DNA from: Candidatus Babeliales bacterium
Lineage (GTDB): Bacteria > Babelota > Babeliae > Babelales > Vermiphilaceae
Direction of reading: 5' to 3'
DNA: 26,736 nucleotides
Assembly (NCBI GenBank): GCA_044451405.1
Contig: JBIOKB010000013.1
Span: 1-26,736, forward strand
Shown here: piece by piece, positions 21,231-25,775 of the stretch
How positions within the stretch are numbered: the first letter of the stretch is position 1
Layout of the letters: the number at the start of each line of letters is the position of its first letter
Made by a program: the position numbers and the translations under genes
Notes under the pieces: generated by a model
What the model was told of the DNA's origin: nothing
The model's input: the letters and a program-made list of their open reading frames with translations, nothing else
Database searches by the model: none

Positions 21231-24200
21231 TTATTCCGTGTAAAACACTACAAGAGTGATCAGAATGAACAGCCCCAACTGTACCGGCCAGAAAAAAACG
21301 CGGTAGAAGGCAAAAAAGCGGGAGAAATAGGGGGTAAGCCTACTCTTATATAACTTGAGCATGGCGTAAAGCACGAACATAATAAATGCAAGATAGAGCA
21401 TGAAAAAGAGATACTCAATATATAACAGCTGTCCACTTCCTTCATGCTGACGTCTGAAGTTCCCATGGAGAACAATCGCGGTAAATATTAAACCACTATA
21501 AGCCGTTAGTGCGGTGAGCGTGCTTATTTTTTCATCCCGTTCCCAGATAGAAAATACGGTATACAGAGAGAAGAAAATAATAAGAATGGGAAGCATAAAT
21601 AAGATAAAATCGTACCATAAATCACGTGCTAAGATCATGTTATAGGAGAGCCATAGTCGATTGCTTACATCCTCGTATGCTTTAAGTCCCATGGTTGTAT
21701 CAGACACATCCGTTTCAAATGAAAAGAAGGTTTCTTTAATGATATATCCCGGTATGAGTACATCTTGATACAGCCCCGGTAATTTTGTTGGTTGAATGTT
21801 GTAATAATCATCAAATGAAGGGATTAACATGATATTTTTACTAAAATCAGGATGTTCTACGGCTATGGTAACATCTTGAACATCAAGCGGATATTTTGAG
21901 AAATCAAATTGTTGTGCCATTTTCGTGTTAAATTGCCACCCTATAACAAGGAAGTCACCTTCTACCATTTCGTAAGTCTTATGTATATTAACAAAGCCTA
22001 TTGCTTGAGGAAATTGTGGTTCTTTTACAAGATTTTTATCAATATCTTTTGGATATTTTTCCCATACATAACCAGATATTAGTAATGCCGAATCAGCAGT
22101 GATATCAGCGGTGTAAATTTGGATACCAAACGGGATATCAATGGTTTTGTTTTCATGAATTTCCTCTGCATATAAATCGCGTACCCGTAAAATACTTTGC
22201 AAATGCATATCATCAACAATGAGCTGATTACGTGGCGGTACCAACACCGGAGTAATACGGATGATAAAAAATAATATGCCTAGTATCGTGAATAATAATA
22301 TTGACAGCGTATATGCATAATCATGAGCTTGTGAAAACCAGATAGGGCCAATAATCCAGAGTGTTATTAACAAAATAAGGAGGAAACAGAGTAAAATGAG
22401 CATGTAATAGTGACGTAATTCGATAGGAGAAAGTTGCACTTCATCAGCAGAGAACATTAAACCAAGAGCCCATTTGGAGATAGGTTCTATTTCAAAATAG
22501 GCCCACATAGATTCTTGTGTGGTATTATTTTCATAGGAAAAATAACCATGATCACCCGCTAACACTTTTTTTCCGATTTCATACAATTTCTTACTCGAAA
22601 TTTCTTGGGCCATATCAAAAATAGTTTTTTGTTCAACTACATAATCATGACTTGTTTGGTATATGAACGTACCAACATCTGAAAGTAAGCAGGAATAGCC
22701 GGGGGTTACCCCATCAAGTTGGAATACACCATCTTGAATGAATTTCACATCAAAGCTTATACATACTATACCAATTGGTTTTTCATGCTTGGTGTCTGCT
22801 GGATCATAAAAAGGGATAGAGTATCCAGCAATGTAAAGGTCTTCCAGAACATCCTTATACGGATTGAACCATAGCATTTTATTTTGCTTGAGCGGTTCGT
22901 TATACCATGCCCAGGTTTCAGCAATAGAACCAATAACCTCTGTTGATTGGGTGGTGTAATCAAAACTTTTTTCTAACTGTTTTGTTTCAATAGTGCCATT
23001 TTTATGACGAATAACCAAAGGTGCATACAGGCGCGTATCTTTGCTGTATGCGTAGGGCTCATAGGCAATTTGAATTTCATACAGCAAGTGGTGTTCTTTC
23101 ATATCGCGGTTTAGGCGTTTGATAATGTCTTCTTTTGGTAACAAGCCGGTATTTAAATCAGTTGCTATAGATTCACCGATTAATTGCAATGCATTGAGCG
23201 AGTGAGTGAGATTTTTAAGTGTATTATGTACGGCATGGCTAATTTCACTTTTTCTTCTTTTTAATTCAACATGAGAGGCGATTTTAAGTGCTATAAGAGT
23301 GCCGATTAACAAGCCCACTGATAGGATAAGAACACCAATTTTAATACTAAAGCGTATATTTTTATTACGCATTCCTGAGCGTATGATTTCCCATGCACGA
23401 ATAAACCATCCATACATATAACCAGCTACCATAAAACAGATGCATGAAAGATAACCAAAAAGAACTGCCAGCAGGTGTAAGTACCATAACGAACCATCAA
23501 CCTCAGCAAGATCAATTTTTGCTACAATACCCCAATCTGTTTTAGGGACGTACTGCCATGCAGCCAGCGTTTTGTGATGATGACGATCTAATTTAATACC
23601 TTCGCCTTCATGGCCCAATGCAGCTTTAAGCATAGGAACTTGCACTTGATCATGGGCACCCTCAAAAGGGAAAAAGAGTTTAAATGGTTTTGTGTTATCA
23701 AAGCGTGTTTTGCTAATATAAATAACCCCATCATGAATTTGTTTTCCTATAATAACTTCGCCTGTTTTTCCCAAATCAATATAGTTTTGTATAATCGTAT
23801 AAATTTTGGGAGTCTGAATTTCTTGCGCAAGAATGCCGATCATAACGTTATTTTTAAATATGGGTATGCAGACAAAAAATGCAAGACGTTTAAGTACTGG
23901 ATCATAATCAAATTCTGATACATCAGGAGTGAACGTCATGAGTATGCGTGATGCAGCTTCAGCCAGCGGATAATGTGGGTATCCCTTATCAACAAAGAGG
24001 TTGACGCCAATATATGATTGGGCAAAATCTGAATAAACTACTCTGCCATCAGGAGCGATTAAAATACTGTTTCTAAACGTATCGGGCGTGCTTTTTTCTT
24101 CAAGAAATGAATTGACATCATCTATAAAAGATTTTGTTTCAGGAGCTGCTAACTGCACAGCGCTTAAAGGAGTTAGTTTTTCTGACGCTTCAATTATTTT

Positions 24201-24443
24201 TGCATGCTGAGCGCGTTCTATGCCAATGCTCATGATACTTTGGATGTAGTTACGTATTTGTAGCGTACGCTCATCAATGGTGTCTGCAAGTTGTTTGGTA
24301 ACCTTTTCATGAACTACGGTTTTTGCATGAAAATACCAGAACGTTGTTCCAGCACAGAGGAGTATGCTCGCTATGAGTGCATATGCACAATACAGATTAC
24401 GTGATGTCGGTGGGCGTTGCTTTAGGGTGTTGGTTGTGTCCAT
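21231..24443 (-). CDS. Tandem dCache domain-fused pentameric ligand-gated ion channel (Pro-loop receptor)
   Basis: TM-dCache-TM-TM-dCache-TM-TM, then pLGIC hallmarks: IPFGIQIY…ISGYVW (beta1-2), FDFSKYPLDVQDVTI (Pro-loop), pre-M1 Arg (ILARD), M1 Pro (MLPIL), M3 LLYIEYLF and M4 RVFFWP. Start at ATG 24443 (TGGGG SD) or 24455. Confidence 0.85.
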   Translation of the reverse strand: MDTTNTLKQRPPTSRNLYCAYALIASILLCAGTTFWYFHAKTVVHEKVTKQLADTIDERTLQIRNYIQSIMSIGIERAQHAKIIEASEKLTPLSAVQLAAPETKSFIDDVNSFLEEKSTPDTFRNSILIAPDGRVVYSDFAQSYIGVNLFVDKGYPHYPLAEAASRILMTFTPDVSEFDYDPVLKRLAFFVCIPIFKNNVMIGILAQEIQTPKIYTIIQNYIDLGKTGEVIIGKQIHDGVIYISKTRFDNTKPFKLFFPFEGAHDQVQVPMLKAALGHEGEGIKLDRHHHKTLAAWQYVPKTDWGIVAKIDLAEVDGSLWYLHLLAVLFGYLSCICFMVAGYMYGWFIRAWEIIRSGMRNKNIRFSIKIGVLILSVGLLIGTLIALKIASHVELKRRKSEISHAVHNTLKNLTHSLNALQLIGESIATDLNTGLLPKEDIIKRLNRDMKEHHLLYEIQIAYEPYAYSKDTRLYAPLVIRHKNGTIETKQLEKSFDYTTQSTEVIGSIAETWAWYNEPLKQNKMLWFNPYKDVLEDLYIAGYSIPFYDPADTKHEKPIGIVCISFDVKFIQDGVFQLDGVTPGYSCLLSDVGTFIYQTSHDYVVEQKTIFDMAQEISSKKLYEIGKKVLAGDHGYFSYENNTTQESMWAYFEIEPISKWALGLMFSADEVQLSPIELRHYYMLILLCFLLILLITLWIIGPIWFSQAHDYAYTLSILLFTILGILFFIIRITPVLVPPRNQLIVDDMHLQSILRVRDLYAEEIHENKTIDIPFGIQIYTADITADSALLISGYVWEKYPKDIDKNLVKEPQFPQAIGFVNIHKTYEMVEGDFLVIGWQFNTKMAQQFDFSKYPLDVQDVTIAVEHPDFSKNIMLIPSFDDYYNIQPTKLPGLYQDVLIPGYIIKETFFSFETDVSDTTMGLKAYEDVSNRLWLSYNMILARDLWYDFILFMLPILIIFFSLYTVFSIWERDEKISTLTALTAYSGLIFTAIVLHGNFRRQHEGSGQLLYIEYLFFMLYLAFIMFVLYAMLKLYKSRLTPYFSRFFAFYRVFFWPVQLGLFILITLVVFYTE

Positions 24444-25699: not shown

Positions 25700-25745
25700 G
25701 CAGTGCACTTTTCTTCTTAGAGATTTATGGTGTAACGTCATATGG

Positions 25746-25775
25746 ATACTAAGGAACCGTGTAAAGTAATGTCAA
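25746..25775 (-). promoter_or_regulatory. Candidate sigma70 promoter for the UrtA-like/pLGIC operon
   Basis: Minus strand TTGACA-18 nt-TAGTAT, about 46 nt upstream of ATG 25699. Confidence 0.55.

Follow-up and report, generated by a model that had tools for sequence, protein, structure and literature searches.

In this study, we explored by computational analysis a two-gene locus on contig JBIOKB010000013.1 of Candidatus Babeliales bacterium, in which the gene of a periplasmic binding protein of the UrtA type (P0002) precedes, on the reverse strand, the gene of a large membrane protein (P0001) that ends in a predicted pentameric ligand-gated ion channel (pLGIC) module. The window, i.e. the whole stretch of 26,736 nucleotides (nt) that was analysed, is the entire 26.7-kb contig (C13) of the assembly (genome G000), which comprises 1.02 Mb in 89 contigs and is 95.7% complete; the genomes of its relatives measure 0.8–1.7 Mb. 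Named close relatives of the window's MreB, 82–87% identical to it, are without exception labelled Candidatus Babeliales or Candidatus Dependentiae. Dependentiae, to which these bacteria belong, are intracellular parasites of protists. As called, the two open reading frames (ORFs) share 34 nt, and with their probable true starts 22 nt. For P0002 the true start is likely M15, because P0160, which is 92% identical, has 425 residues, while for P0001 it is likely M5, because the stored copy P0003 has 1070 residues and M5 is invariant in alignment A5. The features of both genes are collected in Table 1.

Table 1. Features of the binding protein–channel locus (window coordinates; residue numbers refer to the ORFs as called; TM, transmembrane helix)
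Feature	Position	Strand	Basis and remarks
Sigma-70-like promoter candidate, TTGACA(25775-25770)-18-TAGTAT(25751-25746)	25746..25775	-	best-scoring site in 20900-26000
UrtA-derived type-I periplasmic binding protein P0002	24422..25741	-	ORF of 439 residues; start probably M15 (25699)
Hydrophobic N-terminal segment of P0002, residues 19-43; putative membrane anchor or uncleaved signal	25613..25687	-	read from translation
Peripla_BP_5 clamshell domain of P0002, residues 54-414; urea-type pocket	24500..25582	-	alignment to 8HIC
Cache-Cache-pLGIC gene P0001	21231..24455	-	ORF of 1074 residues; start probably M5 (24443)
TM1, residues ~21-42	24330..24395	-	hydropathy scan
First dCache module (Cache-A), periplasmic, residues ~43-322; binding protein predicted to dock here	23490..24329	-	AF2, Foldseek, hhalign
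TM2 and TM3 joined by a basic cytoplasmic loop, residues ~323-393	23277..23489	-	hydropathy scan, sequence
Second dCache module (Cache-B), periplasmic, residues ~394-682	22410..23276	-	Pfam
TM4-TM5 hairpin, residues ~683-735	22251..22409	-	hydropathy scan
pLGIC extracellular beta-sandwich, residues 743-945, with YPLD and R944	21621..22229	-	profile, AF2, Foldseek
Membrane-spanning part of the pLGIC (M1-M4), residues 946-1072, including P956	21240..21620	-	AF2 helices, GLIC alignment

The channel part of P0001 had no match among the Pfam and NCBIfam models, where the Neur_chan models stayed silent, and a phmmer search of its last 332 residues against the PDB sequences returned no match at E ≤ 10. 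A profile built from 20 sequences of the family matched GLIC from the Pro-loop through M4 with E 1.1e-7. In the AlphaFold2 (AF2) model of the C-terminal module, with a predicted local distance difference test (pLDDT) of 81.9, beta strands are followed by four helices at module residues 205–231, 237–261, 268–293 and 299–330, and Foldseek placed GLIC chains on top (E 6.6e-14, TM-score 0.60–0.64, about 330 columns, 15–19% identity). The Pro-loop Y855-P856-L857-D858 (aromatic-Pro-x-Asp), encoded at 21882–21893, the pre-M1 arginine R944 and the M1 proline P956 all align to their GLIC equivalents; within the channel family P856 and P956 never vary, and D858 and R944 vary little if at all. By predicted fold, sequence profile and motifs, the C-terminal module can be assigned to the pLGIC superfamily. 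Before M2 lie the acidic residues D974 and E975, which would be a weak hint of cation selectivity.

Upstream of the channel module, P0001 carries two dCache modules, both of them complete and bordered by transmembrane (TM) helices. Cache-B is recognised by Pfam at residues 446–630, where MCP-like_PDC_1 scores 47.1 bits (cut-off 27) and dCache_1 36.8 bits, under its cut-off of 45. For Cache-A, Pfam gave a sub-threshold match only (Cache_3-Cache_2, 20.2 bits vs a cut-off of 27.7, residues 201–325). The AF2 model of its residues 40–325 (pLDDT 87.1) was matched by Foldseek to Mlp24, PctA and Tlp3, in each case to the dCache ligand-binding domain (E 1.7e-11, TM-score 0.6–0.69), and the profiles of Cache-A and Cache-B align to each other with an hhalign probability of 95.6%. 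From hydropathy, nine TM helices were counted, in the order TM1, Cache-A, TM2/TM3, Cache-B, TM4/TM5, pLGIC extracellular domain and M1 to M4, an order that would put both Cache modules and the extracellular domain of the pLGIC on the periplasmic side. A further stretch scored by hydropathy, residues 191–209, sits within the Cache-A fold and was left out of the count. The original prediction, which had been made from the letters and ORF translations, had described an UrtA/AmiC-like gene overlapping the start of a gene of about 1070 codons whose product would combine a double-Cache region with a pLGIC module marked by YPLD, the pre-M1 arginine and four helices, and all of these elements were recovered at the locus.

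Relatives of the channel module are numerous, with 1269 proteins found at E ≤ 1e-3 in an exhaustive protein search, while a word-based search with full-length P0001 returned two true full-length relatives and a locus search with alignment A5 seven loci, two of them long forms. The family falls into four length classes, of about 1050 residues (two Cache modules), about 700 residues (one dCache module), about 340–480 residues (bare channel) and, in two proteins, about 1500 residues, and genome G000 was found to hold a single gene of it. The NCBI name of one P0001 homologue from Candidatus Babeliales/Dependentiae reads only 'cache domain-containing protein'; since it mentions the cache domain alone, the channel module is unannotated in that public record. 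Two family members of about 1500 residues, P0103 and P0121 (the latter on a 165-kb contig), continue after M4 with Bmp/PnrA-like and ABC_sub_bind domains behind their dCache and pLGIC parts, and would be natural covalent fusions of binding proteins to this channel family. Shorter matches to the family also occur outside Dependentiae at five loci (L055–L059), two with Cache-B plus channel and three with the channel region alone, in records titled Chloroflexota, Anaerolineae, Aggregatilineales, a Candidatus Fredericiella and a Streptomyces.

P0002 is a clear member of Peripla_BP_5 (E 9e-137, 456.4 bits with a cut-off of 27, 361 of 363 profile positions covered), and it is 50–58% identical to proteins that their sources name urea ATP-binding cassette (ABC) substrate-binding protein. 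Against the UrtA model TIGR03407 it scores 414.6 bits, under the curated cut-off of 492.75. Its closest solved structures are 8tg1, then the UrtA entries 7s6e, 7s6f and 8hic, followed by AmiC. The paper on UrtA structure (PMC10392092) gives W120, S122, Y141, Q144, E146, Y190, F192, N246 and S274, in 8HIC numbering, as the residues of the urea pocket; aligned to 8HIC, P0002 retains eight of these nine, with W120 replaced by L129, a change that recurs in P0160. The pocket was complete in all 15 UrtA-like sequences used for comparison, while among binding proteins linked to Cache modules it ranged from nine of nine residues (G024, G057b, G112) to two of nine (G047), with differences at Q144, Y190 or N246 in G006, G009 and G010. 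By eye, P0002 has a hydrophobic N-terminal stretch of about 25 residues, and the N-termini of nine relatives' binding proteins are comparably hydrophobic, which would fit a membrane tether. In a tree of 45 rows, built by a quick method and with 'canonical' rows labelled by name or identity alone, the Cache-linked branches are long (0.9–6.3 vs a median of 0.29), and monophyly of these copies is neither shown nor excluded. Genome G117 carries three tandem binding-protein paralogues with differing pockets upstream of a single Cache-Cache-channel gene (L064:4395-8200). P0162, a protein of 633 residues considered as a possible binding protein–Cache fusion, was rejected as such and is a tandem binding-protein fragment.

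The pairing of the two genes was followed in two sets of genomes, the first of 61 genomes with a binding-protein cut-off of E ≤ 1e-5, the second of 201 genomes, at least 80% complete and drawn evenly across the phylum, with a cut-off of E ≤ 1e-30. In the first set, the channel family was found in 29 and the binding protein in 15 of the 61 genomes. Each of the ten long Cache-Cache-channel genes, encoding 906–1074 residues (G000, G002, G004, G006, G009, G010, G017, G023, G047 and G057), is immediately preceded on its own strand by the binding-protein gene, which is intact at eight of these loci and there overlaps the channel gene by 4–34 nt. No adjacent copy was found in the 16 genomes of this set that have solely shorter, single-dCache channels. 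In the second set, 30 of the 201 genomes carry the binding protein, and in 30 of 30 it adjoins a gene that starts with Cache-A; by coordinates, it abuts a long channel gene, upstream and on the same strand, in 26 of them. The channel frame of G153, also from this set, has just 677 codons, with a gap of about 1 kb. In G093, the gene upstream of the long channel is not visible, because the channel gene ends 190 nt from the contig end.

Four genomes display the binding protein and Cache-A without a fused channel. In G024 (L051:4977-6962) and G112 (L060:3880-5838), the binding-protein gene overlaps that of a Cache-A plus Cache-B protein of 652–661 residues, which in G024, the one of the two that was scanned, has five TM helices by hydropathy. 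In G175 (L062:5056-7349) and G196 (L061:4999-7316), which belong to one genus, it overlaps the gene of a protein of 350–357 residues matching Cache-A alone. At another locus of G175 (L065:1967-4572), a dCache protein of 450 residues is encoded directly upstream of a bare channel of 405 residues. Since these four genomes lack the fused channel, the invariant association is that of the binding protein with Cache-A, not with the channel as such.

We additionally predicted a complex of Cache-A (residues 40–325, alignment A3) with the binding protein (residues 50–439, alignment A2) as the one pairing submitted. The three runs gave an interface score ipSAE of 0.82, 0.82 and 0.84, vs 0.00 for each of three controls; at least 95% of contacts were shared between the runs, and the pLDDT of the partners is at least 91. 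When the tool was calibrated, 58 of 80 solved complexes and 2 of 110 mismatched pairs attained this ipSAE mark, counts that apply only roughly here, since our own alignments were supplied. The predicted contacts involve residues 61, 64, 166–181, 200–204, 280–282 and 301–307 of Cache-A and residues 171–180, 208–213, 362–373, 381–384 and 399–413 of the binding protein. At the in silico level only, the prediction supports docking of the binding protein on Cache-A.

Neither UrtB nor UrtD reached the family cut-off in genome G000, and urease alpha had no match. Its single BPD_transp_2 permease lies on contig C72 (L002, 2772 bases), in a compact ABC importer locus, between an ABC_sub_bind binding protein of its own and an ATPase. 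Five relatives that hold the binding protein were searched as well. Of these, G002 (3 contigs) and G024 (1 contig) gave no match to BPD_transp_2 or urease. G017, G009 and G010 (1 contig each) likewise gave no urease match; BPD_transp_2 is represented by one sub-threshold fragment with stop codons in G017, by one match over the cut-off in G009 and by two in G010. HisKA, Response_reg and MCPsignal had no match in G000, in which two HATPase_c matches lie within frames of 873 and 622 codons.

A Pfam scan of the neighbouring genes in the window found no transporter, urease, kinase or regulator gene adjoining the pair, in agreement with the original prediction, which had stated the absence of urtBCDE, urease, kinase and regulator genes at this place. 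The same prediction had set both genes behind a TTGACA-18-TAGTAT promoter. This candidate is indeed present, with ten of twelve consensus positions in a divergent intergenic gap of 116 nt, and is the best of its region, but as a class, sites of this kind are no more frequent there than expected by chance (14 vs 19.2 ± 4.4 in shuffled sequence). Elsewhere in the window, two adjacent paralogous genes of the LOG/SLOG family (Pfam Lysine_decarbox, LDcluster4) lie at 17542-18207 (+) and 18249-19076 (+). Five ORFs of 293–580 codons had no Pfam match at the thresholds used, namely 19448-20989 (-), 15834-17420 (-), 7110-8852 (+), 11527-12753 (+) and 25858-26736 (+), and none of six flanking window proteins, those of the 19448, 15834 and 25858 ORFs included, was matched in the vicinity of the pair at the relatives' loci.

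Taking these observations together, we propose that the binding protein is a ligand sensor which docks on Cache-A and modulates the pLGIC, and not a component of an importer, a reading to which we assign a probability of roughly 0.6. The two-gene operon would then act as a periplasmic chemosensor with an ion channel as its output. The UrtA-derived binding protein would be anchored at the inner membrane, capture a small urea-like or amide-like ligand and, as predicted by the complex model, dock sideways on Cache-A of the second gene product, which would cross the membrane nine times and expose both Cache modules and the pLGIC extracellular domain to the periplasm. Occupancy of the binding protein might be relayed via the TM hairpins or via periplasmic contacts to the pLGIC module, which would assemble as a pentamer and alter ion flux or membrane potential, while Cache-B could possibly take a second ligand as an extra input. 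The analysis shows the architecture, the folds, the conserved pairing and the absence of an importer match in the genome, and supports the docking in silico only; the identity of the ligand, pentamer formation, gating and ion flux are what we infer from them. The original prediction, that the binding protein serves a channel rather than an importer, is supported, in that none of its three refuting conditions arose: the C-terminal module has the pLGIC fold, homologues lie beside UrtA-like genes, and no cognate UrtBCDE was found. It has to be refined, however, since the partner that never varies is Cache-A and not the channel as such.

Four other explanations have to be weighed against this proposal. 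P0002 could simply be the UrtA of an ABC urea importer whose other genes lie elsewhere in the genome, and stand beside the channel gene by coincidence. Its identity to named urea-binding proteins and the fragmentation and incompleteness of the assembly leave some room for this, but no UrtB, UrtD or urease match was obtained, the sole permease has its own binding protein, and G002 and G024, assembled in three contigs and one, carry the binding protein without any BPD_transp_2 match. With adjacency kept in 30 of 30 carrier genomes and a TIGR03407 score below the cut-off, we regard this explanation as largely refuted and very improbable. More credit, although we still consider it unlikely, is due to the idea that the binding protein merely concentrates or buffers ligand near the channel, which itself or through Cache-B would hold the site of action, without any specific docking on Cache-A. 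Such a 'preliminary concentration' was put forward by Tasneem et al. (PMC549065) for binding proteins and Cache proteins that share operons with bacterial pLGICs; a membrane tether would hold the binding protein locally, and conservation of the predicted interface is not raised. Against buffering speaks that the binding-protein gene tracks Cache-A instead of the channel, as evident from the 16 single-dCache-channel genomes of the 61-genome set without an adjacent copy and from the four genomes that pair it with channel-less Cache-A proteins, as does the complex score of 0.82 vs 0.00 in the controls.

We consider the remaining two explanations improbable. In one, the binding protein would have lost its dependence on a ligand and now serve the Cache-channel complex as a structural or assembly subunit; in its favour, urea-contacting residues are replaced in several relatives, with two of nine kept in G047 and differences at Q144, Y190 or N246 in G006, G009 and G010, and the branches in the tree are long (0.9–6.3 vs a median of 0.29). 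This is countered by the eight of nine pocket residues in P0002 and the complete pockets of G024, G057b and G112, and the three tandem paralogues of G117 with their different pockets look like diversified ligand sensing. Conversely, the pLGIC-like module itself might no longer conduct and instead be a membrane scaffold or oligomerisation platform, with the sensor signalling otherwise. In line with this, Pfam has no Neur_chan match for it, identity to GLIC is just 15–19%, and neither the pore-lining register nor the selectivity can be assigned from the GLIC alignment. Yet the gating hallmarks, i.e. proline and aspartate of the Pro-loop, pre-M1 arginine and M1 proline, are conserved in the family, which counts 1269 members at E ≤ 1e-3; the protein has no cytoplasmic output domain, and the genome gave no two-component or methyl-accepting chemotaxis protein (MCP) match.

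Several observations also weigh directly on our proposal of a docked, channel-modulating sensor. According to PMC10392092, the W120A variant of Prochlorococcus UrtA no longer bound urea, and P0002 has leucine at this position; the ligand is uncertain in general, since pocket residues vary among relatives. The binding-protein genes of G004 and G023 look frameshifted, which could reflect decay or assembly error. Since four of the 30 units of binding protein and Cache-A are without a fused channel, the channel is not obligatory in cis, and the channel itself is not recognised by the Neur_chan models of Pfam. Regarding the predicted complex, ipSAE is the model's own confidence, the partner offered was Cache-A alone, and some of the docking score could be memory, because LuxPQ, HptAS and 5ERE are solved structures. 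The interface is moreover not clearly more conserved than the remaining residues, with 0.45 vs 0.40 for Cache-A and 0.54 vs 0.61 for the binding protein.

Beyond the locus itself, we tentatively suggest, at somewhat less than even odds, that the unit represents a receptor class, absent from the lists of known sensors stimulated by binding proteins, in which a binding protein gates a pLGIC via a dedicated dCache adaptor and TM hairpins. For an obligate-intracellular Dependentiae bacterium of about 1 Mb with no two-component or chemotaxis match, such a receptor would be the chief or sole extracytoplasmic chemosensor. It would be modular, its parts (binding protein plus Cache-A, Cache-B and channel) being fused in most lineages but encoded separately in others, and it would be retuned to other ligands by diversified binding-protein pockets and by the three tandem paralogues of G117. 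If true, a chemical signal would act directly on ion flow in an intracellular bacterium with a tiny genome, suggesting a way for genome-reduced intracellular bacteria to sense the chemistry around them in the absence of a kinase or MCP match. The unit further bears on the control of bacterial pLGICs by accessory N-terminal domains. With a soluble partner whose pocket is near that of UrtA, a predicted interface and natural fused and split versions, it could be a tractable system in which to study this control.

In comparison to known channels, P0001 shares with GLIC, ELIC and DeCLIC the beta-sandwich extracellular domain and four-helix TM domain, the Pro-loop, the pre-M1 arginine and the M1 proline, but differs from them by about 740 additional N-terminal residues with two TM-flanked dCache modules and five extra TM helices, and by its separately encoded partner protein. 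A recent study (PMC12664993, 2025) describes the N-terminal domain of DeCLIC as two jelly-roll lobes and DeCLIC as the only pLGIC with a partially characterised N-terminal domain. Links of binding proteins and Cache domains to bacterial pLGICs were already predicted in 2004, and the present unit varies on these: by Tasneem, Iyer, Jakobsson & Aravind 2004/5 (PMC549065), bacterial ligand-gated ion channels of the acetylcholine receptor type (ART-LGICs) are reported with N-terminal fusions to type-I periplasmic binding proteins (PBP-I) or to MCP-N plus Cache, together with operons containing stand-alone genes of type-II periplasmic binding proteins (PBP-II) or Cache domains, for which functional cooperation was proposed. 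Unlike the cases given there, the partner here is a PBP-I descended from the UrtA line and encoded as a separate protein, TM hairpins accompany the two dCache modules of the channel, just one of these modules is tracked by the binding protein, and the unit occurs in Dependentiae, also in natural split forms. In the literature we searched, which included few subscription journals, none of the associations predicted in 2004 was found characterised, and no closer precedent was found for a pLGIC combined with Cache and binding protein or for a ligand-gated channel of Dependentiae.

With UrtA of UrtABCDE (PDB 8HIC, 7S6E, 7S6F), P0002 has fold, family and eight of nine urea-pocket residues in common, and differs in its sub-cut-off score on TIGR03407, the exchange of Trp120 for leucine, the putative hydrophobic N-terminal anchor, a different neighbour gene and a genome in which neither UrtBCDE nor urease was found. 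Ionotropic glutamate receptors of eukaryotes are a conceptual analogue only, belonging to an unrelated channel family with a covalently inserted clamshell and no Cache intermediary. Covalent linkage also distinguishes Dret_0059 (PDB 5ERE; Wu et al. 2017, as cited in PMC8694187), which ranks 17th in the Foldseek search with Cache-A and joins a solute-binding module to a dCache-type module (tandem PAS-like) in one chain, vs two polypeptides here. Closest in arrangement are LuxP/LuxQ, HptA/HptS and BasB/BasT, in which binding proteins dock on dCache-like sensors according to a 2021 review (PMC8050422), where BasB is given as a Peripla_BP_6 protein and the main text contains the term 'ion channel' zero times. 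As in these systems, the binding protein is here encoded beside a bimodular dCache-like receptor, with docking so far as predicted by our complex model. Their outputs, as described in the same source, are histidine kinases or chemoreceptors, in contrast to the ion channel proposed here; if our reading is true, ion channels join the outputs served by binding-protein sensing.

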